Positions 5,645 through 41,943 of a stretch of 44,656 nt of DNA are shown here, piece by piece. The translations under genes and the position numbers were made by a program. The notes beneath the pieces are model-generated. The model searched no databases. It saw nothing but the letters and a program-made list of their open reading frames with translations, and was not told where the DNA came from. The DNA is from a virus (lineage: Duplodnaviria > Heunggongvirae > Uroviricota > Caudoviricetes), in IMG/VR virus record IMGVR_UViG_3300045988_024106; one strand, 5' to 3'. Position 1 is the stretch's first letter, and every line of letters begins with the position of its first letter.

Positions 5645-6346
5645 TTATTTCCTCAGGGCTTTAAGTTGCCGTTCAAATTCGGCAGGGTTCGATTTATACA
5701 GAGCCAAACGCTCCGCTTCACTCATGTCTTTAAACGCTGGTGCGGCCCCGCCGCCTTTGCCACCGGAAGCCCCGCCGCCGGAAGCTGCATTTGCTTTAAT
5801 CAAATGCGAAAACGCTTTGTGTTCACGCAGGTATTTGCGGAACTGTTCCGGGTCAGTCGTGATTACGTTGCCATCTGCGCCAACAAACTTAGTAACCACA
5901 TCATCGCCTTCGAACTCAGTCTTAACGAACGGCGCAAGAATGTCCACTGCTTCCGGGGTGATAAAGTCACCCGCGAAAGAGCCTAACACTGCTTTACGTT
6001 CGCTGCCGAGGATGCGCTCTGCCATTCTGGAGATGCGACCATCTTTCTCGGCTAACACCGGGTCATACTGGCTACGAATCGTCTTTTCGAACTCGTCCAT
6101 CTTACCAGCGGCTTTTAACGCCTCCTGGTGTGCGCGCTGCCGTTCTTCTTCGGCCTCTTTTGCTTTACGGGCGGCTTCTTTCTTCTCCGCCAGCAACGCT
6201 TCCTGATTGGCCTTAAGACCGGCTACTTCTTTCTCAATCAGCGCCTGAACTTCTTCAGCGGTGAACATTTTCGGCGCGTCACCGCCGCCAGATTTATCTT
6301 CTGCCCCAGCTTCTTCCTGGAACGGATAACGTAAAAAACGATTCAT
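5645..6346 (-). CDS. Head scaffolding protein
   Basis: 233 aa from ATG at 6344-6346 (track start at 6400 is TTG); Ala/Glu/Lys-rich predicted coiled coil; immediately upstream of the capsid gene. Confidence 0.65.
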   Translation of the reverse strand: MNRFLRYPFQEEAGAEDKSGGGDAPKMFTAEEVQALIEKEVAGLKANQEALLAEKKEAARKAKEAEEERQRAHQEALKAAGKMDEFEKTIRSQYDPVLAEKDGRISRMAERILGSERKAVLGSFAGDFITPEAVDILAPFVKTEFEGDDVVTKFVGADGNVITTDPEQFRKYLREHKAFSHLIKANAASGGGASGGKGGGAAPAFKDMSEAERLALYKSNPAEFERQLKALRK

Positions 6347-6428
6347 AGTCAGTATGTCCCCTGGACGTTGGAATCCGGGCCACCCGGATTTACATGTCAA
6401 GAATAAATTATTCCAACATGCAAGGCAA

Positions 6429-6692
6429 CTATTCCAGAATATTCCGCACGTAATCCTGCAACATGAACACTTTCAGTCTCAGTTGCCGTACACATTCGGC
6501 GTTCCGAACGTCAATAGCCAAATCCTCGTCAGCGTCACTACTTGGCGGCGCCAGTTTGCACGGCGGCTGCATCATCGTCGTATCCGGGGATGGAATTGGC
6601 GTTTGCGACGGCGCGGGACTTGAGCAGGACGTGAGCATCATCGAAAGTGCACACGCTGCGGCCAGGCGTTCTAATGTACTTAACGACTTCAC
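6429..6692 (-). CDS. Rz1: o-spanin (Rz1-like outer-membrane lipoprotein)
   Basis: 87 aa; signal peptide ending in lipobox LTSC, Pro-rich mature part; GTG start with RBS GAGGTG; overlaps the 3' end of the Rz-like gene in another frame. Confidence 0.6.
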   Translation of the reverse strand: MKSLSTLERLAAACALSMMLTSCSSPAPSQTPIPSPDTTMMQPPCKLAPPSSDADEDLAIDVRNAECVRQLRLKVFMLQDYVRNILE

Positions 6693-6924
6693 GGGTAATC
6701 ACCTCTGATTTCGTCTTGCCTTCGTTGTCAGCAGCGGCTGCCTTTGATTCGTCCTGCTGCTGCCGTTGTGTTTTCTTCGCTAACTCGGCCTGCGCTTCTT
6801 GCTGTTGCTGTGAAACGAGATTCGCCCGGCCTTCGTTCCAGCCGCTGCGGTATTGAAAGTAGCCGTGTGCGTAAGCCAGGATGATGAAACATGCTCCAGC
6901 TACGACAGTTGCTTTAAGATTCAT
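6538..6924 (-). CDS. Rz: i-spanin (Rz-like)
   Basis: 128 aa; N-terminal transmembrane segment (KATVVAGACFIILAYAHGYF) then Gln/Glu-rich coiled coil; RBS AAGGAG; overlapping Rz1 partner. Confidence 0.65.
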   Translation of the reverse strand: MNLKATVVAGACFIILAYAHGYFQYRSGWNEGRANLVSQQQQEAQAELAKKTQRQQQDESKAAAADNEGKTKSEVITREVVKYIRTPGRSVCTFDDAHVLLKSRAVANANSIPGYDDDAAAVQTGAAK

Positions 6925-6940
6925 GTTTCTCCTTTCTCGA

Positions 6941-6968
6941 TAAGTAAAGCCCCGCCATAAAGCGGGGC
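6941..6968 (-). terminator. Terminator-like hairpin ~20 nt upstream of the Rz start (minus strand)
   Basis: gccccgc-cataaa-gcggggc (6949-6968); minus-strand tail TTTACTTAT; lies between element R1 and Rz. Confidence 0.45.
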
Positions 6969-7034
6969 GCTAGTCCTTATCATTTAAACATAGAAACGGC
7001 GTAATCTCAGTAAACCCGTTACTTTTTACACAAG

Positions 7035-7177
7035 CAATAGAGTATGGCCCTTCCGAACGCGTCAGCGTAACTACACTCAGGACTTACGTCCCGCTCCGCT
7101 ACCTGCCCGCGCCGCGGTCGCTTGTTCATACTTCACAAGCTCAGGTGGAGCTTAGCATATTTTCAGTGAAAAGTCAA
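7035..7177. repeat. Element R1: ~145-bp structured intergenic element, paralogous to R2 (20251-20395); candidate sRNA/regulatory element
   Basis: Alignment by eye to 20251-20395; core 7112-7160 differs from 20330-20378 by one base; contains hairpins gcttgt-N9-acaagc and aagctc-N5-gagctt. Confidence 0.6.
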
Positions 7178-7242
7178 CTATTCGAATAGTTTATTCCAAC
7201 ATTTACAATTCGGTGGAATAACTGGAATACGTAAATAAATAG

Positions 7243-7276
7243 TTTACAGACACCAACATAATAGGGTACCATTCGG
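7243..7276 (+). promoter_or_regulatory. Promoter/operator box (P-box) upstream of the mini-clamp gene
   Basis: tttacagacaccaacataatagggtaccattcgg; related to boxes at 9398, 42810, 18253(-), 20065(-); holds a TATAAT-like hexamer and an imperfect AATAG-N4-CTATT palindrome. Confidence 0.55.
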
Positions 7277-7299
7277 ATAACTTAAACAGGAGATGTAAA

Positions 7300-7821
7300 A
7301 TGGTTGCCACAGTAATTACTTTTCCCGCGTATGTAGGGGCGAAAATCTGCAGGGCTAAAAATGATGTACGCTACTATCTGAACGCTTTTTACATAGACCC
7401 GGAAGGATTGATAGTGTCTACGGACGGCCATAGATTGTTCTGCGACAATGTTAAGACAAACGTTGAGAATGGGGCTCTCATAGACATAAAAGGGAGAGAG
7501 CCTTCTAAATTTAACTACGCGGAAGTAGACCACGACAACGGCAGTGTATCTTTCTATGACGATAGTCGTGCGCTTATATGTACACTTCCGGTGGATGTTG
7601 TAGACGGAAAATTTCCTGACTGGCGACGTGTGGCGCACATCACGCCGGGGGCAGTTGATAGCATAGGATTTACCATGCCCTACTTGGCAGACGCGCACAA
7701 GATTTCTAAGGCATACAAAAATGAAATTGCTCGTTTCGATTTCCAGGACCAAACCAGAGGATGCAAAATATCGTTTTCAAACACTGCATTTATGGTGCTA
7801 ATGCCAGCGCGATTTAAATAA
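7300..7821 (+). CDS. Truncated beta-sliding-clamp (DnaN-like) protein, moron
   Basis: 173 aa; DVRYYLN...STDGHRL, VDGKFPDWRRV, IGFTMPYLAD and C-terminal MVLMPARFK match conserved E. coli DnaN domain II/III segments (from memory); RBS ACAGGAG; own promoter and terminator. Confidence 0.6.
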   Translation: MVATVITFPAYVGAKICRAKNDVRYYLNAFYIDPEGLIVSTDGHRLFCDNVKTNVENGALIDIKGREPSKFNYAEVDHDNGSVSFYDDSRALICTLPVDVVDGKFPDWRRVAHITPGAVDSIGFTMPYLADAHKISKAYKNEIARFDFQDQTRGCKISFSNTAFMVLMPARFK

Positions 7822-7827
7822 AACTAA

Positions 7828-7848
7828 GGCCCCTTAACGGGGCCTTTT
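7828..7848. terminator. Bidirectional rho-independent terminator
   Basis: ggcccc-ttaa(c)-ggggcc hairpin followed by TTTT; A-rich on the opposite side; between convergent CDS 7300..7821 (+) and 7850..8311 (-). Confidence 0.7.
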
Positions 7849-7849
7849 A

Positions 7850-8311
7850 TCATTCTGGCTTAGTAACCTTCGCCGCCTTGCTTACCGCCTCTACCCCATC
7901 AGCATCAGTAACTTTAACGAAGTATTCACCAGCCGCATTAACAGTCAGAGACAGAGCCTCTTCCGGGGCGTTCACCACTTCCTTCCCGTCTTTGTACCAG
8001 GTCAGTACATACGGCGCTTTACCTGCCTTAACTTCGACGGTGATGGTGGCGCTACCGTCGACCAGCTCGGTGTCTTTCGGTTGCACAGAGAAATACATGT
8101 CACCAGCGTCTGCCAGATACGGAATCTCGTAAAGCATGCCCGCCGCCGGTAGCGCAATACCGGTTTTATCTGCGAACGGCATATCGTCTACCGGTGTACC
8201 TAGTACACTTTCATCTTCAATAAACACCACATTCTCGCCGGAGCCAGACACACGGGCGTACTGGACTACGCGGCGCGCGGGTACATCAGTTACTTTGAAA
8301 AAGCCCATCAT
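7850..8311 (-). CDS. Ig-like domain protein (putative head decoration/accessory)
   Basis: 153 aa; C-terminal TITVEVKAGKAPYVLTWYKDGKEV...GEYFVKVTD is an Ig-like repeat; start overlaps the stop of the head morphogenesis gene (TAATG). Confidence 0.5.
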   Translation of the reverse strand: MMGFFKVTDVPARRVVQYARVSGSGENVVFIEDESVLGTPVDDMPFADKTGIALPAAGMLYEIPYLADAGDMYFSVQPKDTELVDGSATITVEVKAGKAPYVLTWYKDGKEVVNAPEEALSLTVNAAGEYFVKVTDADGVEAVSKAAKVTKPE

Positions 8312-9411
8312 TAATCCCCTTTCAGATAATCAGCAACACGTTTATCGAGTTCCGCCATCTGCTTAAGCGTGAGCGGATTCCCGAAACCATCTACAGATAT
8401 TACGCGAAACTCTTCCGGCGATATACCGCTGTTACGGAAAATCTTACCGCGAACTGGCCCTAATGCTTCATCCTGAAACCACGCCGGTTGTTGTTTAAGG
8501 AACTCGTAATAGGTGGTGTCTGCACTTACCTGAGTACCGCCGTCCGCACCCTTAGCCGCGCGTTTTGCGCCTTTATCGAGGAAGTCGAACTCAGAACTGA
8601 TTACAGGCGCGGTGGTGCTTCGGCAATTAGGATGCGCGGGTGGCATCGGCCCTTTACCAATTTCCCACGTCATTCCGTCTCTGGCCCTGCAAATCGTGCT
8701 GGTGCGGCTGTCCAGCGTTGACACCCACTCGTATTTCTCGATGATGTCGTCGTTCCGGCGATACGTCTCGTTACGGGCTTCATTGGATACGTGAGACAGC
8801 GCGGTGCGGATTACGGTAGCCGCGTTACGTTCAGAGATGTCAGCCAGTCCGCCAGCGCCTACGACATTCTTAACAATCTGTCGTGTTGTCTGACCTTGTA
8901 CGAACCCCATCTTAACGCCCGTTACAAGACGGGCGACTTCGGTTTCACCCCAGCCATCCATCAGCTTAGTGAAGTCGACAGGCTTGTCGCTCAGTGAGAG
9001 CGGTTGAAACTCAGCAGCGGCCCACACCTGTTCAGCGGTGGGTGTAACGAATTCTGCGTTAACGTTGGTGGCTAGTGTCTTTACGTTCCACTCAGCCTCA
9101 TACGCTGCCAGCTCCTTAAGGTCTTCTGTCAGCTTTGTTCGCCAGTCGCCTGTAAGTCCGGTTAGTGCTTCTTCAATGTCGCGTAACAGTTTATTCAGTC
9201 GCGCAGTGCTACGCCCGTCGTCACCGAATAGCAGCACCTGCCGTTTGATTTCATCTCGCATTTCCTGGATAAACGGAGCGAGGTCTTTCACTTCACCGGA
9301 TGCGGTGCGTTGCAGCCAAATCTGGTGGCTGATTAGGGATGTAAGTAAGCTCATAGGCCCTCCTGTGGTATCGCCAGTGTAACGCATAAAAATAATATTT
9401 GCAGACACCAA
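8311..9411 (-). CDS. Head morphogenesis protein (Mu F / SPP1 gp7-like minor head protein)
   Basis: 366 aa; STLDSRTSTICRARDGMTW resembles the Phage_Mu_F family; located just downstream of the portal gene. Confidence 0.7.
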   Translation of the reverse strand: MVSANIIFMRYTGDTTGGPMSLLTSLISHQIWLQRTASGEVKDLAPFIQEMRDEIKRQVLLFGDDGRSTARLNKLLRDIEEALTGLTGDWRTKLTEDLKELAAYEAEWNVKTLATNVNAEFVTPTAEQVWAAAEFQPLSLSDKPVDFTKLMDGWGETEVARLVTGVKMGFVQGQTTRQIVKNVVGAGGLADISERNAATVIRTALSHVSNEARNETYRRNDDIIEKYEWVSTLDSRTSTICRARDGMTWEIGKGPMPPAHPNCRSTTAPVISSEFDFLDKGAKRAAKGADGGTQVSADTTYYEFLKQQPAWFQDEALGPVRGKIFRNSGISPEEFRVISVDGFGNPLTLKQMAELDKRVADYLKGD

Positions 9412-15445: not shown

Positions 15446-15934
15446 TCAACCTTTAACCGCGCGTCCAATAGCCTCCGCCTCCTGCCACGGTTTGCCGTCG
15501 AACAGCGCCAGACGTCCTGCTGTACGGCGACGCAGGCCGAGTAATGGCTTGCCATTCTGGTTGATGAACAACGCCAGCTTAGCCCGCAGCGTCGCAATAT
15601 CGCCAGAACGCAGCGCCTTGCCCGTGCCAGTAGTAGCCGCAATCACGCCAGCACCCGCGTTATAGACCAGGTCACACACTGCATCGAACTGCGCCTGTGT
15701 CAATGAATAGTGTGCTGCCGCATCAACCGCAGCTACAGCCTTAGCCATATCGCGATTCAGTAACAGCAAGCCTTGTCCAGGGGTGATGGTCTTACCCGGT
15801 GTTACGTCTGGACCGTAATGCCCGTAGCCTATGGTAAGGTACTTCTCGTTTGACGTAGCGCGGTACGCAGTTCCGCGGAATCCCTCAAACGCGGCACAGA
15901 AATGCAATCCATTATCTGAAATGTTTCGAGACAC
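15446..15934 (-). CDS. Endolysin (GH24 lysozyme-like)
   Basis: 162 aa; N-terminal FEGFRGTAYRAT...TIGYGH and C-terminal LLGLRRRTAGRLALF resemble P22 gp19/T4-type lysozymes; preceded by two membrane-protein genes. Confidence 0.7.
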   Translation of the reverse strand: MSRNISDNGLHFCAAFEGFRGTAYRATSNEKYLTIGYGHYGPDVTPGKTITPGQGLLLLNRDMAKAVAAVDAAAHYSLTQAQFDAVCDLVYNAGAGVIAATTGTGKALRSGDIATLRAKLALFINQNGKPLLGLRRRTAGRLALFDGKPWQEAEAIGRAVKG

Positions 15935-16184
15935 GCTTATGCCCTCCGTATGACAACCACGCCTGGCGAATCTGACGCAGCGCGGCTAATGTGATTAACG
16001 TCTCAGGCAGCGTCGGCGACACGCTGCCCTGTAACAGGTGGATACATCCGGCGGCGCAGACGATAGCGGTCAGGATATAGAGCACCCGACCAAATAGCCC
16101 GTCGTCCACGCTGGGATGATACACATTAAACAGCGATGTGCCCCCGATTGCCAGCATACCGCCGAACCAGAATAACTCATTCAT
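15912..16184 (-). CDS. Small membrane protein (holin/antiholin-like)
   Basis: 90 aa from ATG at 16182-16184 (RBS GAGGAGG); two hydrophobic segments; between holin and endolysin. Confidence 0.5.
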   Translation of the reverse strand: MNELFWFGGMLAIGGTSLFNVYHPSVDDGLFGRVLYILTAIVCAAGCIHLLQGSVSPTLPETLITLAALRQIRQAWLSYGGHKRVSKHFR

Positions 16185-16485
16185 CTGTGCCTCCTCGACG
16201 CGCGATGTATTCTCCGGCAACGATACTGGAGAGACGGGAATAGATGGGCATCCAGAGAACAGCGATAATGAAGCCCAGGCCCGCGATTTCACGGTCGCCC
16301 GTGATACCGAACCATTGAGCTGCGAGAGGTGCGCCAAATACGGCGCAGGCGAAACCAGTAGCGATGAAGCAGAAGCCGTCGATAGGGTCAGAAATAGCGG
16401 ACTTATGTTGTCTCAGTCCGATTACCCCACCGGCTAGTGCGGCAGCCAGAAGCCAGCCTGTCACAGTTTCAGTAAATTTATCCAA
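16177..16485 (-). CDS. Holin, putative
   Basis: 102 aa with about three hydrophobic transmembrane segments and a charged C-terminus; first gene of the cassette. Confidence 0.55.
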   Translation of the reverse strand: MDKFTETVTGWLLAAALAGGVIGLRQHKSAISDPIDGFCFIATGFACAVFGAPLAAQWFGITGDREIAGLGFIIAVLWMPIYSRLSSIVAGEYIARRGGTDE

Positions 16486-16842: not shown

Positions 16843-17074
16843 TGCGATACTTCTCCAGAATCTCACCTACTCTATCGTATGCATATTCGTCCGGTATTAC
16901 CCCGTAGCCCAGGTCATTGTCCAGCTTAACTAGCATATCCAGGATACCGTTCAGATTGGATTCTAGTTTCGCGTAGTCCTCGTAACTTACATACCGCCCT
17001 TCATGAGAGTCCGGCACCGGCGTTATATCTACCGCACCCGCGAAATCTTCTGTTAAGTCGTATCGTACAACCAT
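16826..17074 (-). CDS. Hypothetical protein, tandem paralogue A (YV.YEDYAKLE motif)
   Basis: 82 aa from ATG at 17072-17074 (MVVRYDL...); shares MV.RY.L and G.YV.YEDYAKLE with the adjacent upstream gene. Confidence 0.45.
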   Translation of the reverse strand: MVVRYDLTEDFAGAVDITPVPDSHEGRYVSYEDYAKLESNLNGILDMLVKLDNDLGYGVIPDEYAYDRVGEILEKYRNEPRN

Positions 17075-17268
17075 CACTCCACCCCTTCCACACGTGTAAC
17101 TGACCCACAGTTCGCGCACTCGACGTAATCCGGGAACTGGTCTTTGTATTTCTGTAACTCGGCTTCGAGTTTCGCGTAGTCTTCGTACTCTACGTACCCA
17201 CCATCATCGCACGGGTTTACCGAACCACCTTTTTGATGGAACAACTCTAATTCGTATCTCTGTACCAT
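17074..17268 (-). CDS. Hypothetical protein, tandem paralogue B (YV.YEDYAKLE motif)
   Basis: 64 aa (MVQRYELELF...GGYVEYEDYAKLEAEL...); ATGA overlap with paralogue A. Confidence 0.45.
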   Translation of the reverse strand: MVQRYELELFHQKGGSVNPCDDGGYVEYEDYAKLEAELQKYKDQFPDYVECANCGSVTRVEGVE

Positions 17269-20098: not shown

Positions 20099-20164
20099 AG
20101 ATTAGTTACGTTGCCGTTGTGATTCTTTCGTGTAATAGGATAGCGAGCGAAACGAAACGAACGT

Positions 20165-20196
20165 GGTGCCGAAGGCACCAAGAGTGAGTGAGTGAG
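20165..20196. other. GC hairpin (ggtgcc-gaa-ggcacc) followed by (GAGT)n microrepeat
   Basis: Hairpin 20165-20179 and gagtgagtgagtgag 20182-20196; on the minus strand the hairpin is followed by a moderately T-rich tail. Confidence 0.4.
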
Positions 20197-20250
20197 CTTG
20201 CGGTTCTGACCTACGGCAAATCAGTAACTTATATACTTAGGCGGGAATTA

Positions 20251-20395
20251 CAATAGACTATGGCCCTTCCGAATGCGCCAGCGAGACTCACTCCACACGT
20301 CGAGACGTGCTCGTTTCGCCTGCCGCGCACCGCGGTCGCTTGTTCATACTTCACAAGCTCAGGTCGAGCTTAGCATATTTCTTAGTAAAAGTCAA
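20251..20395. repeat. Element R2: ~145-bp structured intergenic element, paralogous to R1 (7035-7177); candidate sRNA/regulatory element
   Basis: Alignment by eye to R1; nearly identical core 20330-20378; the upstream half has a different hairpin (cacgtc-ga-gacgtg) at the position of R1's ggac-ttac-gtcc. Confidence 0.6.
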
Positions 20396-20502: not shown

Positions 20503-20685
20503 ATGCAACATTACATGACACAGAATGAAGTAGCTGAACGTATCGGGGTGACACGGCAGACAATTAATAACTGGTTGCGCAGTGGTAAATTCCCGGATTG
20601 TTGTATTAAGGTTATGGGTAGACGTTTACCGGGAACATTTGACCGTAATAAAGTTGAAGCGTGGATTAAGGAGAACGTGAAATGA
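20503..20685 (+). CDS. AlpA/excisionase-family HTH DNA-binding protein
   Basis: 60 aa from ATG at 20503 (RBS AGGAG); MTQNEVAERIGVTRQTINNWLRSGKFP is a typical HTH_17/AlpA-like helix-turn-helix. Confidence 0.6.
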   Translation: MQHYMTQNEVAERIGVTRQTINNWLRSGKFPDCCIKVMGRRLPGTFDRNKVEAWIKENVK

Positions 20686-23359: not shown

Positions 23360-23376
23360 AGGGGCGTTAAGCCCCT
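23360..23376. terminator. Hairpin terminator overlapping the XRE gene stop (aggggc-gttaa-gcccct)
   Basis: GC hairpin between convergent primase-helicase (+) and XRE (-) genes; T-rich tail on the minus strand. Confidence 0.5.
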
Positions 23377-23582
23377 TCACCGAACGCCAGCCACTTGGCG
23401 TCTACTTCCAGCACTTCTGCCAGTTTAAACAGCGTCGCCGGGCGGACATCCTGAGTTACACCGAGTGCCAGTTGGTTAATCGCGCCCTGGGAAACCCCAG
23501 CCAGAACAGCCAGACGGCGCTGGGAGATGCCGAGTTCTTTACGGCGTTGTTCTACACGGATGCCTAGTTCAGATGGTTGCAT
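23367..23582 (-). CDS. XRE-family (Cro/CI-type) HTH transcriptional regulator
   Basis: 71 aa; ...RRKELGISQRRLAVLAGVSQGAINQLALG is a canonical HTH_3 motif; sole minus-strand gene in the plus block; RBS AAGGAG. Confidence 0.75.
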   Translation of the reverse strand: MQPSELGIRVEQRRKELGISQRRLAVLAGVSQGAINQLALGVTQDVRPATLFKLAEVLEVDAKWLAFGEGA

Positions 23583-24467: not shown

Positions 24468-24740
24468 ATGATTTACCAACTCTACCGAGCCGTAGACAGG
24501 CGGGATAGCACAGAGGCGTTATGGCTGTTGCGCGCGCCGTCCGGTGCGCACCAGATGGAAGAGATGGCGTACTTAGGCAAAGTACCACGGCCTAAAGATA
24601 TAGGCCGTCACGTGTCGCAGATTAAGCGCACGACTTTCGCCAAGCCTGACTTTTATGTCTTCGAGTCGATGTATGGGTGGGCTATGCACTGCGAACATAA
24701 GACCCGGCATTTAATTGACCAGTGGGAGAACAGGGTATGA
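24468..24740 (+). CDS. Hypothetical protein
   Basis: 90 aa from ATG at 24468 (MIYQLYRAVDRRD...); the track ORF begins upstream at 24330. Confidence 0.4.
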   Translation: MIYQLYRAVDRRDSTEALWLLRAPSGAHQMEEMAYLGKVPRPKDIGRHVSQIKRTTFAKPDFYVFESMYGWAMHCEHKTRHLIDQWENRV

Positions 24741-25234
24741 ATTGGCATGAAGTTTTTGACTACGACCCCGCTACAGGTAAATTATTTTGGAAAATAAGTC
24801 CGTCAAAATCTGTAAAAATAGGGCAAGAAGCTGGCAGTACGAGGGCGGACAACGACGGGAGTGAATTTAAAATACTACGTTTTAACGGGACTACTAAACT
24901 TATCCACCACGTAGTTTGGGAGATGTTTAACGGGCCGATAGCGCCTGGGGAAGTAATTCGTCATAAAAATAAAGATAGAACTGATAACAGAATAGAAAAT
25001 CTTATAAAAATGCGTCGGGGCAGTATCGCACACGGCACCAGCATACGGACGGACAATACTTCAGGGGTTAAAGGTGTTGGGTTTCATAAACGCTATGGTA
25101 AGTGGGTCGCAAGAATTTATGTAGACGGCAGGCCGATTTATTTAGGGGCTTACGATAAGTTAGAGAACGCGGCTAAGGCTCGCAGGCAAGCCGAGATTAA
25201 ATACGGGTTTACAGTTAACGGAGCTGAGAAATGA
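24737..25234 (+). CDS. HNH homing endonuclease with AP2-type DNA-binding domain
   Basis: 165 aa from ATG at 24737 (RBS GGAGA); HNH signature ...IRHKNKDRTDNRIENL... and AP2-like GVKGVGFHKRYGKWVARIYVDGRPIYLGAYDKLENAAKARRQAE. Confidence 0.7.
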   Translation: MNWHEVFDYDPATGKLFWKISPSKSVKIGQEAGSTRADNDGSEFKILRFNGTTKLIHHVVWEMFNGPIAPGEVIRHKNKDRTDNRIENLIKMRRGSIAHGTSIRTDNTSGVKGVGFHKRYGKWVARIYVDGRPIYLGAYDKLENAAKARRQAEIKYGFTVNGAEK

Positions 25235-31648: not shown

Positions 31649-33065
31649 GTTTCAAAGGCGCGAGTACCAGAAGCTCATGACCTCGTTCATGTTGCAACAC
31701 CATCGCTGCAACATATGGGCAAGCATGGGCGCTGGGAAGACTGGCAGCGTACTGTGGGCATTAAACCGACTGTTCCGCAACGGCCAACTTAATGATGACG
31801 ACCGCGTGTTAATACTCGCCCCGCTGCGCGTTGCGTCCGGCACATGGCCCGCAGAACAAGAGAAATGGCGATTCCCGTGTCTGAGTGTCGTAGATGCGAC
31901 CGGTTCAGAGAAGCGCCGTATCGCGGCGCTGGAGTCGGACGCTAACGTGGTATGCACAAACTACGAAGTTATCGAGTGGCTGATTGACTACTACGGCAAA
32001 GATGACTGGCCTTTTACCGTTATCGTTGCCGATGAAAGCACGAAGCTTAAATCATTCCGCAGCCGTTCAGGTGGTAGTAAGAGGGCGAAGGCGCTCAGTA
32101 AGGTGGCATTTGGAAAGGTTAAGCGTTTTATTAACCTGACGGGAACGCCGTCACCGAACGGCCTCAAAGACTTGTGGGGGCAGAACTGGTTTATCGACGC
32201 GGGCGAGCGCCTGGGTTCTTCCTACACGGCATTCACTGACCGCTGGTTTAACTCGGTACAGAAAGGTAAGTCGGCGATGGCGCGTGAATACCATGCACGA
32301 CCAGGTGCTGATAATGAAATCCACCAGAAGATGAAGGACATTAGCCTCACGATTGACGCCGCCGAGTGGTTCGGTTGTGAAGCTCCGATTATCGTACCGG
32401 TTGAAATCGACCTGCCGAAGAAAGCACGTCAGGCGTACATAGATATGGAGGAGAAGTTATTCGCGGAACTGGAGAGTGGGGAAGTTGAAGCGGCTAACGC
32501 AGCAGCGAAGACGTCTAAGTGTTTGCAGATTGCTTCCGGTGCCGTGTATGTGACTGGCGACGACGGAGAAGCAACGAAAGACTGGGAGAAAGTGCACGAT
32601 ACGAAACTGGATGCGCTCGAGTCCATTGTGGGGGAACTACAGGGTGCGCCGTTGCTGGTAGCATATCAGTTTAAGCACGAACTGGAGCGCATCCTTAAGC
32701 GATTCCCCCAAGCACAGGCGTTTGCAAAAGGTGCTAAGGGTAATAAGCAGATGGAAGCATGGAACCGTGGTGAAATCGAAATCTTATGCGTGCACCCCGC
32801 GTCAGCTGGGCATGGTTTGAATTTACAGGACGGCGGACATCATCTGGCGTTCATCTCACAAGGCTGGAACCTTGAGCACTATTTGCAGGTCGTTGAGCGT
32901 ATAGGCCCGGTCCGCCAGAAACAGGCAGGCCACGAGCGCCCGGTGTTCCTTTACCACATCGTTGCTAAGGACACGCTGGACGAGGTTGTTGCCGCGCGTA
33001 CGGACGAGAAAAAATCTGTACAGGAAGAGTTGCTTAATTACATGAAGAGACGAGGTAAGAAATGA
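31641..33065 (+). CDS. SNF2-family (DEAD/DEAH-like) helicase
   Basis: 474 aa; Walker A GAGKTG, DExx box VIVADEST, C-terminal helicase domain. Confidence 0.7.
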   Translation: MSKFQRREYQKLMTSFMLQHHRCNIWASMGAGKTGSVLWALNRLFRNGQLNDDDRVLILAPLRVASGTWPAEQEKWRFPCLSVVDATGSEKRRIAALESDANVVCTNYEVIEWLIDYYGKDDWPFTVIVADESTKLKSFRSRSGGSKRAKALSKVAFGKVKRFINLTGTPSPNGLKDLWGQNWFIDAGERLGSSYTAFTDRWFNSVQKGKSAMAREYHARPGADNEIHQKMKDISLTIDAAEWFGCEAPIIVPVEIDLPKKARQAYIDMEEKLFAELESGEVEAANAAAKTSKCLQIASGAVYVTGDDGEATKDWEKVHDTKLDALESIVGELQGAPLLVAYQFKHELERILKRFPQAQAFAKGAKGNKQMEAWNRGEIEILCVHPASAGHGLNLQDGGHHLAFISQGWNLEHYLQVVERIGPVRQKQAGHERPVFLYHIVAKDTLDEVVAARTDEKKSVQEELLNYMKRRGKK

Positions 33066-33577
33066 TGGATGGCGAGGAGTTGCTACTTAAGGCGCATCTG
33101 CTGTCGCGTGGTTTTGATGCGGACCGATTACGTGTAGTCTTAGGCTCTGGGGTAGCTACGTTTTACCTGTGGGGATTTGATGGTAGGCTTCGCGGATACC
33201 AGCACTACAAACCACATGCGGAAAAGAACTGTAAAAACCCTAAAGACGCGAGGTACTTTACCAGAACAACAAGGCCGTGTTTATGGGGGCTTGAGTATTT
33301 GCCGGAGAGCGGGGTGGTATTTGTTACTGAAAGCGTATTCAAAGCCGTAGCCTTGATGAATTGCGGGTTCAATGCCGTAAGCGCACTTGGGTCAAATATA
33401 CCAACCGACCTACGTCAGCAAATGTCACTTTTGCCGTATGACTGGGTGTGCGCGGGCGACAATGATAAAGCTGGCCTAAAGTTCAGCAAAACATTCACCA
33501 GAGGATTTGTGTCAAACGACCTTGATGAACTTTGTGAAGAAGAAATAACGTATCTTGCGAGGAAATTTACCAGATGA
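33062..33577 (+). CDS. Toprim-domain protein (DnaG-like primase catalytic core)
   Basis: 171 aa; Toprim-like VFVTESVFKAV (conserved Glu) and CAGDNDKAG (DxD). Confidence 0.5.
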   Translation: MMDGEELLLKAHLLSRGFDADRLRVVLGSGVATFYLWGFDGRLRGYQHYKPHAEKNCKNPKDARYFTRTTRPCLWGLEYLPESGVVFVTESVFKAVALMNCGFNAVSALGSNIPTDLRQQMSLLPYDWVCAGDNDKAGLKFSKTFTRGFVSNDLDELCEEEITYLARKFTR

Positions 33578-39655: not shown

Positions 39656-41943
39656 TATTTGAACCCCGGCGCATTTCTTGTGGCCTTTCGGGCCTTGCTA
39701 ATCTTACTGTTGCTGTTCTGCAAAGAGGCAGCCACTTGCTCTTCGATGATGATACGCAAACGGCCTTCATCATCTTGTTCAGTGGATACGTTGCCAATCT
39801 GACTCGATGTGTTATTTACGATGGTAACATTAGATGGGCCAGAAGAAGACCCGTTTTGCCCCATAATTTCTTTCATCTGCTGCGCGGTGCGCACACGCGA
39901 TGCGCCAGCGGGCATGATAACTTCGGGTTTACCACGTTCAGCGATAGTAGAAGCCTGCCCCGCGGATAACTGACCGCCCTGTTCACGCGCGGACCTGATA
40001 GCGGAAATCTGCGCCATACCCGCCCCAACGGCTGCGGCAGCGGCTACAGGGGCAAGGAACGGACCAACAATAGGGATAGCCGCCGTAGACTTGTACGCCT
40101 CAATAGCTGCGGTGTACGTGGCTATAGTGGCCTGTACGATAGCGAATGCTTTATACGCACCAGAAGCCTCGCCCAACGCAGACCCGATGTTTGAAGCCAT
40201 GTTACCAAAGGCGGTTGCTGTTGCGTCGGCACGTTTCGTGGCGTACTGCTCGTTGATGGCGTTAAGCGCGGCCTGATACTGCGTCTCACTAATCAGACCC
40301 TGCTCACGGTACTTATCCGCCACCGCCAGTTTCTGCTGTTCCTGGATGTCGAGAAGCTCAAGCTCAGTAGCGTTCTGGCCCATAATCTGAGCCATGAAGT
40401 CGTCACCTTTCTGCTGCTTTTCCTGGGCTTCTTTCTGGCGTTTATCCAGTTCATCTTGGCGTTTTTGCCCTGCTTCAAGGACGATAGCTGTTTTAGCTTG
40501 TTCGTATTCTTTCAGAGACAACGCGCCCTGTCTGTAGAACTCTTTTGCCTTAGCCAGTTTCTGCTGTTCCTGAGCGTCAATAGCCTTTAACTCGTCGTTG
40601 TTCTGACGGGCTAAAGTGTCGAGGTAATCCTGCGCCTGTTTACGCAGTTGCTCCGCTTTCTTAGCGGCGGCTTTCGCGTCTTTGTCGTCGGCGTTTCCGG
40701 TGCCGCCAGTTCCGCCCTTTTTATTAACAAGGCTGGCTAAGTCAATTTCTTGCTTCTTGCGCTCGTCATACTGCTTGCGCTGTTCCTCAATTTCTTTCTT
40801 ACGCTGCTTAGACCTGTTGGTGATGGCCTGTGATTCGGCCTCTGCGCGTTTTATGCTGGCGGCGTATGCGGCGTCAGCCTCTGCGGTCAGGTTTTTAAAT
40901 GTGAGTGCTGCCGTTTTGCTCGGGTCAAACACGTCAGCGAGGGTCTGTCCTAACGCTACGGCATAATCGTCAATGCGCTGGAACCACGCAATAACCTCAT
41001 GGAATGTCTGCTGGATGTCAGGCAACCACTCACGGATAGCGTCCGGTATAGTACCCAGCGAGTCGGACATGTCCGCGGATTTGTTCTCGGTGTCATATGC
41101 CAGGTCGTTCAAAGCGTCAGAAATAAACTTGAACGACTCATTGAACAGTGTCACCCAATCCTGGAGTGTGGCGGCTATCTCATTAGACGCGATGGCATCA
41201 GTAAGCGCCGTGATAGCATCTTCCGCCCTCGCAGCTTGCTCACCTACTGCGTCGCCGAAACCTGATTGCGCCACCGCAAGTACAAGGCCGTCAAAGGAGT
41301 CCGCCAGGCTCGACAACTGACCATCTAATGTCTTAGAGCGCGTCTCCATTGCCCCGGCGAAATCCGTGTTGCCGATGTTCAGAAGGTATTTCTGAATCTC
41401 TTCGGAGTTCTTTTTAACAGTAGTCGTTACGCCGCGGAACGTGAACGAAACCGTATCCGCCTGTTGCGACGACTTGATACCAAACTCTTTCAGTCGCTCA
41501 AACTCAAAGGTACTGGCGTCCGCCACGGCCTCAATCATCTGATTAAGGTCTTTACCCATCGCAGCGGCGGTGTTGCCGTAGGAGATTAACGCCTCTTTGC
41601 TGGGATTCAGGCCGAGAGCTACAAGTTTAGTGAAGCCCTCAACAGCCTGGTTAAGGCCGTATGGGGTCTCTTTTGCGAACTGTTGCAGGACGCTGAAAGC
41701 CTTAGCGGCATTCTCGGCACTCCCGGTCATCGTGATGAGGCCGGAGTTCAGCTTGTCGAAGTTTCGCTGGGAGTCCACCAGCGCACTGAACACCTGTTTG
41801 GCGGTTTCCAGACTGACGACGGCGGCTGCGGCAGCCCCCGCCGCCTTAGTGAGCCCGTTCAGTTGTGATGTGGTTTTATCGACGCCGGTCGATGATACTC
41901 GTACTATCAAGCTAGCGGTATCAGCCATGATTTCTACCTTCAA
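39655..41943 (-). CDS. Tail tape measure protein
   Basis: 762 aa; long Ala/Gln/Glu/Lys-rich predicted helical protein; downstream of the G/T chaperone pair. Confidence 0.8.
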   Translation of the reverse strand: MKVEIMADTASLIVRVSSTGVDKTTSQLNGLTKAAGAAAAAVVSLETAKQVFSALVDSQRNFDKLNSGLITMTGSAENAAKAFSVLQQFAKETPYGLNQAVEGFTKLVALGLNPSKEALISYGNTAAAMGKDLNQMIEAVADASTFEFERLKEFGIKSSQQADTVSFTFRGVTTTVKKNSEEIQKYLLNIGNTDFAGAMETRSKTLDGQLSSLADSFDGLVLAVAQSGFGDAVGEQAARAEDAITALTDAIASNEIAATLQDWVTLFNESFKFISDALNDLAYDTENKSADMSDSLGTIPDAIREWLPDIQQTFHEVIAWFQRIDDYAVALGQTLADVFDPSKTAALTFKNLTAEADAAYAASIKRAEAESQAITNRSKQRKKEIEEQRKQYDERKKQEIDLASLVNKKGGTGGTGNADDKDAKAAAKKAEQLRKQAQDYLDTLARQNNDELKAIDAQEQQKLAKAKEFYRQGALSLKEYEQAKTAIVLEAGQKRQDELDKRQKEAQEKQQKGDDFMAQIMGQNATELELLDIQEQQKLAVADKYREQGLISETQYQAALNAINEQYATKRADATATAFGNMASNIGSALGEASGAYKAFAIVQATIATYTAAIEAYKSTAAIPIVGPFLAPVAAAAAVGAGMAQISAIRSAREQGGQLSAGQASTIAERGKPEVIMPAGASRVRTAQQMKEIMGQNGSSSGPSNVTIVNNTSSQIGNVSTEQDDEGRLRIIIEEQVAASLQNSNSKISKARKATRNAPGFK

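Follow-up and report, generated by a model that had tools for sequence, protein, structure and literature searches.

A conserved pair of putative operators at the scaffold and spanin genes of Guernseyvirinae phages

Two copies of the palindrome GGAATA-N3-TATTC lie about 780 bp apart in the 44,656-nt virus sequence IMGVR_UViG_3300045988_024106 (the whole stretch is called the window below), on either side of a segment that holds the Rz/Rz1 spanin genes and a structured RNA element, R1. The motif is present twice per genome and is kept in three genera with varying flanks; hexamers that fit sigma-70 promoters are conserved beside it, and both R1 and a hairpin in front of the scaffold gene show RNA structure on the coding strand. 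On balance, we favor the reading that the two sites are paired binding sites, that is, putative operators, for one sequence-specific regulator, which would probably be phage-encoded. The elements on which this reading is built are the following:

6401-6414: palindrome of site 1, GAATAAATTATTCC (minus strand GGAATAATTTATTC), overlapping the spacer and the -10 hexamer of the predicted scaffold promoter
6408-6419: first copy of a 12-mer, TTATTCCAACAT (coding, i.e. minus, strand ATGTTGGAATAA), within the spacer of the predicted scaffold promoter
6430-6445: two direct TATTCC half-sites (minus strand GGAATAttctGGAATA), just upstream of the -35 hexamer of the predicted scaffold promoter and overlapping the last Rz1 codons (RNILE*)
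7178-7189: perfect 12-bp palindrome CTATTCGAATAG, abutting a -35 hexamer, found in the Kagunavirus type only
7184-7197: palindrome of site 2, GAATAGTTTATTCC (minus strand GGAATAAACTATTC), upstream of the -35 hexamer of the predicted R1/spanin promoter
7191-7202: second copy of the 12-mer, TTATTCCAACAT
7215-7230: two GGAATA half-sites (minus strand TATTCCagtTATTCC), between divergent promoters

To judge from its database matches, the window is the whole genome of a coliphage of the genus Kagunavirus (subfamily Guernseyvirinae). Its region 5600-9500 matches 484 phage records, the best of them being Escherichia phages of Kagunavirus (identity up to 96%); many Jersey-like phages of Salmonella come next. 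For comparison we retrieved 47 IMG/VR loci by means of the Rz protein and added several GenBank relatives (L-numbers denote loci). The sampled lineages are Kagunavirus (Snoke, Ivi, HSE2), Jerseyvirus (Jersey), Cornellvirus (VSiP, St162) and an unclassified Klebsiella member. Site 1 was counted over 54 related loci, site 2 and the 12-mer over the 46 loci that carry the segment with the R1 promoter, and palindromes per genome in the window, Snoke, Jersey, VSiP and the Klebsiella phage VLCpiS11a (L057).

Site 1 has the palindrome in 52 of the 54 loci, including those of Jerseyvirus and Cornellvirus, and site 2 has it in 43 of the 46. In the window, GAATA-N3-TATTC is found solely at 6401 and 7184, and clusters of GGAATA/TATTCC solely at the two sites. 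Snoke, Jersey and VSiP likewise have exactly two palindromes per genome; the whole genome of the Klebsiella phage, a more distant relative, has none. One copy always lies in the spacer and -10 region of the predicted scaffold promoter, with its partner 600-800 bp upstream. On the coding strand, the Jerseyvirus sites read AGTAAGTGGAATAATTTATTC (site 1) and AATTCAGGAATACTTTATTC (site 2), and they have only GGAATA-N3-TATTC in common. In the alignments, the conserved unit is thus the 14-bp palindrome together with the adjoining GGAATA half-sites, rather than the 12-mer.

The preliminary description of this region had singled out the 12-mer, proposing that identical direct copies bracket the spanin segment, each followed by a half-site pair, and that they mark either a regulator shared by both borders or the footprint of a module insertion. 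Both copies are indeed there, and the 12-mer is found nowhere else in the window even with one mismatch; the half-site pairs TATTCCAGAATATTCC (6430-6445) and GGAATAACTGGAATAC (7215-7230) are also as described. As a significant unit, the bracket did not hold up: no more than 24 of the 46 loci with the same segment have the identical 12-mer at both sites. The flanks in Jerseyvirus and in several mosaic phages differ from the 12-mers of the window, and across genera only the GGAATAA part is kept, while ATGTT varies. The 12-mer sits in a predicted promoter spacer; on the coding strand, its first five bases belong to the free part of that spacer and its last seven to the palindrome. The 12-mers are best described as the overlapping part of two GGAATA/TATTCC half-site clusters, each built on GGAATA-N3-TATTC, and the bracket as such has no special meaning.

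A bare pair of exact 12-mers is not beyond chance. The window contains eight distinct direct pairs no more than 1 kb apart, where shuffled sequences have a mean of three, and 87% of the shuffled genomes contain at least one exact pair within 1 kb. These figures suit the view that the 12-mer pair is a functionless coincidence, which we nevertheless consider very improbable. The match extends to 17 of 19 bases (GAATAaaTTATTCCAACAT versus GAATAgtTTATTCCAACAT), and 19-mers matching at 17 positions number four in the window against 0.17 in shuffles. Moreover, the two half-site clusters are the only ones in the genome, and their core is kept at both sites across genera. The decisive support for a signal beyond chance comes from this conservation in relatives. 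It contradicts coincidence for the core, so that chance applies solely to the five non-conserved bases of the 12-mer.

Both sites are associated with promoter-like sequences. The elements at site 1 are listed here:

6400-6428, minus strand: predicted promoter P_scaf, TTGCCT (6428-6423), 17 nt, TATTCT (6405-6400)
6372-6390, minus strand: conserved hairpin AAUCCGGGuggCCCGGAUU, at the predicted 5' end of the scaffold mRNA
5645-6346, minus strand: scaffold protein gene, with its true start at ATG 6346, followed by the major capsid gene

On the minus strand, the order is GGAATAttctGGAATAG-TTGCCT-tgcatgttGGAATAATT-TATTCT-tgacatg, then the hairpin AAUCCGGGuggCCCGGAUU, GGGGA and the scaffold ATG. The hexamers of P_scaf fit sigma-70, are 17 bp apart and match the consensus at 8 of 12 positions. 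All three genera (Kagunavirus, Jerseyvirus and Cornellvirus) have the segments GGAATAGTTGCCTT and GGAATAATTTATTCTTG unchanged, with 8 variable nucleotides between them, and the half-sites at 6430-6445 are invariant in the Kagunavirus and Jerseyvirus loci despite the divergence of Rz1 just upstream. In Cornellvirus, a reverse-strand gene and a terminator precede the site 1 block, which leaves the scaffold gene there dependent on a promoter of its own. The block is replaced in the Klebsiella phage by a near-consensus TTGTTA-17-TATATT at the same distance from the same hairpin. We infer from this pattern that P_scaf is the scaffold/capsid promoter. Another arrangement, a promoter based on TTGACA at site 1, was ruled out; no -10 hexamer follows it, and Jerseyvirus has TTGTTA at that place.

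The base pair of the hairpin that adjoins CCGGG is U-A in Kagunavirus, A-U in Jerseyvirus and G-C in Cornellvirus, and its G.U variants pair only when read on the minus strand. These compensatory changes and the minus-strand-only G.U pairs indicate an RNA hairpin at or near the 5' end of the scaffold/capsid mRNA, where it probably has a stabilizing role. The hairpin is kept in four lineages, including the Klebsiella phage, which is otherwise unlike the rest in this intergenic region.

At site 2, two divergent promoters are predicted:

7149-7177, minus strand: predicted sigma-70 promoter P_R1, TTGACT (7177-7172), 17 nt, TGc-TAAGCT (7157-7149, extended -10)
7243-7272, plus strand: divergent early-type promoter TTTACA-18-TACCAT, member of a repeated family with the near-palindrome TAATAG-N4-CTATTC

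Site 2 lies between them, P_R1 being on the minus and the early-type promoter on the plus strand. The minus-strand order is TATTCCagtTATTCC-N17-GGAATAaacTATTCGAATAG-TTGACT-17 nt-TGc-TAAGCT. In Jerseyvirus, the hexamers and the TG of P_R1 are kept (TAGACT, 17 nt, TGt-TACGCT) and the spacer differs, which is the pattern expected of a real promoter. A second copy of this predicted promoter is found at 20395-20367.

It could be argued that all this is promoter architecture only: site 1 would be the core promoter of the most highly expressed genes, site 2 would stem from a duplication, and no dedicated regulator would be involved. The palindrome does overlap the predicted -10 hexamer TATTCT, GAATAG precedes the -35 hexamer in both promoters, and promoter duplication occurs in this very genome, P_R1 and R1 being found again at 20395. 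We regard this explanation as unlikely. Kagunavirus, Jerseyvirus and Cornellvirus share the spacer bases GGAATAATT without change and differ freely in the first half of the spacer, a pattern that a plain sigma-70 promoter does not call for. The copy at site 2 is not placed to serve as a -10 or -35 hexamer, the duplicated promoter region at 20395 lacks the GGAATA palindrome, and in Cornellvirus an exact second copy lies inside a coding region.

The Cornellvirus arrangement also bears directly on the operator reading. In VSiP, the second palindrome is an exact inverted copy of the site 1 14-mer, 616 bp from site 1, and the same holds for St162. This second GGAATAATTTATTC lies on the start codon of the o-spanin gene (ATGAATAAATTATTCC; 7108-7125 in L056, VSiP, and 1717-1732 in L053, St162), so that the spanin N-terminus and the putative operator use the same bases. 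The Cornellvirus leader promoter TGTATAAT has no GGAATA sites. By our own arithmetic, the chance of a second copy of a 14-mer in a 43-kb genome is about 3e-4. The retention of a partner in such a changed context suggests that it is the pair that matters; it favors an operator pair with the scaffold/capsid promoter as the common target. Of the two proposals in the preliminary description, the shared regulator at both borders thus fits in the form of a promoter-associated palindrome pair in which the scaffold promoter is the constant member; the 12-mer is not its unit.

A further alternative is that the border blocks are recombination linkers, kept or spread as homology for the exchange of R1/spanin modules among co-infecting relatives. 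Mosaic loci do exist. Four of them (L016, L034, L035 and L048) have a site 2 of the Kagunavirus type and, at site 1, a spacer of the Jerseyvirus type, and L034, L035 and L048 join R1 and site 2 of the Kagunavirus type to Rz and site 1 of the Jerseyvirus type. R1 is 95–99% identical across coliphages and Salmonella phages, whereas the neighboring genes are more diverged. The presence of a Jerseyvirus-type 8-mer inside the Kagunavirus-type site 1 of L016 points in the same direction. However, exchange at a conserved sequence results from conservation and does not cause it, and neither the dyad symmetry nor the count of exactly two is explained in this way. In addition, the direct repeat is only 12–19 bp long, too short for efficient homologous recombination. 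Linkers of this kind are hence quite improbable as an explanation. The 8-mer itself, AGTAAGTG, lies in the scaffold promoter spacer of an otherwise Kagunavirus-type locus (L016, IMG/VR 3300045988_011391) and is to be read as a second allele of the variable spacer or as a short patch brought in by recombination.

If the two sites are operators, site 1 (6401-6445) would overlap the spacer and -10 region of the promoter that starts the scaffold/major-capsid transcript at its conserved 5' hairpin, and site 2 (7178-7230) would touch the -35 region of the R1 promoter, from which Rz/Rz1 would be transcribed as well whenever the polymerase reads through the R1 hairpin. A protein on both sites would then set the level or timing of transcription into the scaffold and capsid genes, possibly by folding the intervening DNA with R1 and the spanins into a loop, and the same binding would couple scaffold/capsid control to the R1/spanin promoter. 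The sites have properties expected of operators: dyad symmetry, confinement to regulatory regions and stronger conservation than the adjoining non-coding bases. Activity of the hexamers as promoters, protein binding, the sign of regulation and looping are inferences.

Paired or auxiliary operators that act at a distance are familiar from lac (O1/O2/O3), gal (OE/OI), the deo operators and lambda OL-OR. Like these, the present pair consists of two dyad sites, one over a core promoter and one hundreds of base pairs off, and like lac O2, the distal copy of Cornellvirus lies inside a coding region. Unlike the lac-type pairs, the spacing varies (616–789 bp) and extra direct and inverted half-sites surround the palindromes; looping is conjecture here.

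Which protein might bind the motif? A Pfam scan of about 45 small open reading frames (ORFs) gave only three DNA-binding domains, an HTH_17, a Cro-like HTH_3 and an HNH-AP2 endonuclease, and no match to the Q, N, AlpA or sigma families. Two of them are candidate regulators:

20506-20685, plus strand: 60-aa HTH_17 DNA-binding protein (Pfam PF12728, 1.6e-8)
23367-23582, minus strand: 71-aa Cro-like HTH_3 protein (Pfam PF01381, 2.3e-12)

Jersey has a homologue of the HTH_17 protein, but none was detected in VSiP or the Klebsiella phage; all four genomes under comparison encode the Cro-like protein. Neither distribution equals that of the palindrome, which is found in Kagunavirus, Jerseyvirus and Cornellvirus and is absent from the Klebsiella phage. 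Of the host-factor motifs compared by eye (ARG box, RcsAB box, CpxR, DnaA box, Lrp and sigma-54), none fits in register. The HTH_17 protein was also considered as an AlpA-like antiterminator and dropped: residue numbers in the structure paper on Pseudomonas aeruginosa AlpA reach 142 or more, which makes AlpA a much larger protein, and the DNA element of AlpA is located between the -35 and -10 hexamers. The third domain, HNH_3 with AP2, belongs to a homing-endonuclease-like gene which, together with a Toprim-like gene, lies in the replication module (24722-25234 and 33062-33577, both plus strand); the two are absent from or diverged in the relatives compared.

Several observations weigh against paired operators. 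The spacing of the copies shows no obvious helical phasing over its range of 616–789 bp, and some phages have point changes in a half-site of site 2. Both P_scaf and P_R1 match the consensus at just 8 of 12 positions, and neither was called by the promoter scan, whose threshold was 9 of 12. As the site 1 palindrome contains the predicted -10 hexamer, its conservation may partly be that of the promoter alone. The sites are placed differently relative to the promoters, in the promoter core (site 1), upstream of the -35 hexamer (site 2) or in a coding region (Cornellvirus), so that there is no single simple mode of action. Finally, the link to the HTH_17 protein rests on four non-independent genomes and fails for Cornellvirus, which bears the palindromes and has no detectable homologue of this protein.

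The segment between the sites begins, in the direction of transcription, with R1, of which the window contains a second, partial copy:

6945-7142, minus strand: R1 (R1a), structured non-coding RNA or leader of about 195 nt
6949-6968, minus strand: GC-rich hairpin that ends R1 just before Rz/Rz1, terminator-like in Kagunavirus
20150-20395, minus strand: R1b, a copy of the R1 promoter and the P1 and P2 domains with 82% identity over 150 nt, ending in a hairpin at 20179-20165

R1 is composed of a 5' hairpin (P1), a long three-part hairpin (P2; about 88 nt together with P1), a conserved tail UUCGGAAGGGCC..CUAUUG and a 3' hairpin. Of 181 phage records, 177 match it at 95–99% identity, and they include Salmonella phages with an Rz of only 73% identity. 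RNAalifold and pair counting back the basal stem (C-G to U-A in nine sequences), the apical hairpin and the 3' hairpin. In the alignment, 97.9% of the cells are paired, compared to 31–49% with slid partners. Seven pairs are changed on both sides, but most of them split two clades, so that the independent events are few. The G.U pairs place R1 on the minus strand. The thermodynamic z-score of R1a is weak (-1.9), and that of the R1b stretch (-0.05), the 5' end of which was cut inside P1, carries no information; the case for an R1 structure therefore rests on covariation.

The terminator-like hairpin reported earlier at 6949-6968 is real. On the minus strand, it reads GCCCCGCTTTATGGCGGGGC followed by TTTACTTATC, folds with -17.9 kcal/mol (z = -3.55) and shows compensatory changes between C-G, G-C and U-A. 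With its tail UUUACUUAUC, the hairpin (6968-6949) passes a terminator scan, and in phage Golestan it was predicted as terminator T03 (PMC7203180). Its U-tract is poor or missing in Jerseyvirus and missing in Cornellvirus.

Rfam gave no match at gathering score in the whole window, and in 6300-7320 its hits at E up to 10 were no better than chance; ARAGORN found no tRNA or tmRNA. Two ORFs inside R1 that GenBank records annotate, one of 36 aa (7129-7019, annotated in Snoke) and one of 63 aa (Jersey_08, KF148055), were rejected as coding on account of 1-nt indels among relatives and are probably not genes. When viral contigs were scanned with a 14-base R1 motif, 85 of the 119 hits were chance matches; the full R1 context was found only in Guernseyvirinae-type contigs.

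R1b has an identical P1 hairpin, a P2 rebuilt by compensatory changes and the same promoter. It is also present in Snoke and in one IMG/VR Kagunavirus contig, and was not detected in Jersey, VSiP or the Klebsiella phage. An early-type promoter (20082-20066) lies downstream of R1b, and the HTH_17 gene runs divergently from it.

The layout of the region recalls two known systems. The late region of lambda begins with PR', followed by the 194-nt 6S RNA and tR', then by the lysis and head genes, and Q is loaded at the promoter. Here, too, a predicted sigma-70 promoter is followed by a non-coding transcript of about 195 nt that ends in a hairpin before spanin and head genes, with binding-like sites at the promoter. 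In contrast to lambda, there is no Q, AlpA or N family match among the roughly 45 small ORFs, R1 is a conserved structured RNA, and its hairpin has no U-tract in Jerseyvirus and Cornellvirus. The elements bound by Q and AlpA lie between -35 and -10 (PMC9371919), whereas the motif at site 2 lies upstream of the -35 hexamer; with the lack of a family match, this does not agree with antitermination of the Q/AlpA type.

The second system is HK022, whose putL and putR are cis-acting antiterminator RNAs (PMC9378689). As with put, Kagunavirus has two paralogous RNAs just after promoters, with two stem-loops each, and R1 and R1b head two long same-strand gene blocks with internal terminators. Unlike put, R1 is present as a single copy in Jerseyvirus and Cornellvirus, and the units downstream of R1 and R1b have promoter-like sites of their own. 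One could go further and propose that R1 and R1b are a new family of structured, promoter-proximal phage RNAs that act on transcription of the long late and lysis blocks, in cis like put or in trans as small RNAs, and that a small phage HTH protein uses the palindrome pair as a switch to time the expression of R1, spanins and capsid. The result would be a late circuit made of protein and RNA in virulent siphophages that use only host RNA polymerase; we put it forward as a speculative and rather doubtful proposal.

The genes of the segment and those relevant for its position are as follows:

6538-6924, minus strand: i-spanin Rz, 128 aa (PHROG 2536 'Rz-like spanin', 4.7e-54, full length)
6429-6692, minus strand: o-spanin Rz1 (PHROG 5672, 1.3e-29, and PHROG 1267)
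8311-9411: Mu-F head-morphogenesis gene
15446-16485, minus strand: holin, second holin and endolysin (PHROG for the two holins; Phage_lysozyme)

Rz and Rz1 are 60–95% identical to the annotated spanins of relatives. Rz1 overlaps Rz by 155 bp (6692-6538) and continues past its end in the 'overlapped' architecture, and its translation contains a lipobox-like LTSC. The same 155-bp overlap was described for phage Jersey (Kongari 2018, PMC6139136), and by these similarities the pair is an already known part, the Jersey family of two-component spanins. The spanins had been noted as split from the holin/endolysin cassette. They are indeed about 8.5 kb away from it, between the head-morphogenesis and scaffold genes, but this is the layout of the whole subfamily and not a peculiarity of the window. 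The synteny comparison proposed at the time was carried out, and all Guernseyvirinae examined carry the spanins at the same place. In Kagunavirus, Jerseyvirus, Cornellvirus and the Klebsiella member alike, the genes run from head morphogenesis through decoration protein, (variable gene) and spanins to scaffold and capsid. The split position is already known: the genome announcement of phage Schulenberg calls holin/antiholin and endolysin 'genetically separate' from the spanins (PMC6763661), and in Golestan, the spanins are ORF7/8 and the lysis genes ORF66-68 (PMC7203180).

In an outgroup phage with a homologous scaffold (32% identity), the morphogenesis, scaffold and capsid genes are contiguous with no spanins between them, which means that the spanin insert is old and subfamily-wide. 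Something was thus inserted in the ancestor of the subfamily, and direct repeats bracket the segment, as they would if the 12-mers were the target-site duplication or attachment remnant of a spanin-plus-R1 module that entered the head cluster. We reject this explanation, which is close to refuted. Identity of the 12-mers is missing in about half of the relatives with the same segment, five of their bases fall in a variable stretch, and the core that is kept forms a palindrome instead of a plain duplication. In Cornellvirus, site 1 is retained and its partner has another position. The only protein genes of the segment are Rz and Rz1, with no integrase, transposase or homing endonuclease gene among them, and no subfamily relative examined has an empty site; only the distant outgroup lacks the insert. 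The suggested footprint of a module insertion is accordingly not supported.

The putative operator pair, the two predicted promoters and R1/R1b appear to be new; they go unmentioned in the few papers found on these phages (no search was aimed at the motif or R1). The literature we reached contains no description of how Guernseyvirinae time late and lysis genes with host RNA polymerase alone. A temporal RNA-seq study of phage vB_Eco_K1B4, which is 93% identical, is too coarse to help, gives no transcript ends and does not mention the spanins (PMC12645636). Guernseyvirinae comprise the K1-capsule coliphages and the Jersey-like phages of Salmonella; they are often isolated with therapy or biocontrol in view and account for about 500 records in the phage collection used here. 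A two-copy operator motif, two predicted promoters and a structured RNA without an Rfam family are directly testable. If paired operators are the right explanation, the presence of spanins in the head cluster would be explained by a control region in common with scaffold and capsid, and the elements would offer handles for engineering these phages.

Upstream of site 2, the divergent early-type promoter leads into an accessory slot:

7300-7821, plus strand: variable accessory gene, 173 aa, beta-clamp-like
7826-7846: bidirectional terminator that closes the upstream head-gene unit and the accessory gene

The accessory gene has the PHROG label 'RusA-like' and a weak Pfam match to DNA_pol3_beta_2. 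In relatives, the slot is empty or contains unrelated genes. Enclosed between the early-type promoter and the bidirectional terminator, the slot (7300-7846) is a classic moron slot. The promoter belongs to a family, tTTGCAgACaCCAAtATAATAGGGTACTATTCA, with about ten copies in the genome, among them 7259, 9414, 30484 and 42826 on the plus and 18269, 20082, 23627, 23672 and 26735 on the minus strand; the same family was detected in Golestan by PHIRE (PMC7203180). Its near-palindrome TAATAG-N4-CTATTC spans the -10 hexamer and contains a GAATA-type half-site with another spacing. Two copies of the promoter precede the Cro-like gene, and the near-palindrome may be the operator of the Cro-like protein.

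In the Klebsiella phage, the region upstream of Rz contains TTGCGAG repeats, including a perfect palindrome CTCGCAAAATTTTGCGAG (L052 3290-3345, corresponding to L057 35652-35934), and a 74-nt stretch of it recurs in the early region of the phage (L057 5192-5265). This suggests the same logic with another operator specificity.

Two other direct repeats with copies less than 1 kb apart were seen in the window. One is a 14-nt exact repeat, AGTTTCGCGTAGTC (16958-16980 and 17161-17183), among small early genes, and the other a 20-nt exact repeat, GCCAGTTTCTGCTGTTCCTG (40323-40342 and 40551-40570), inside the tape-measure gene.

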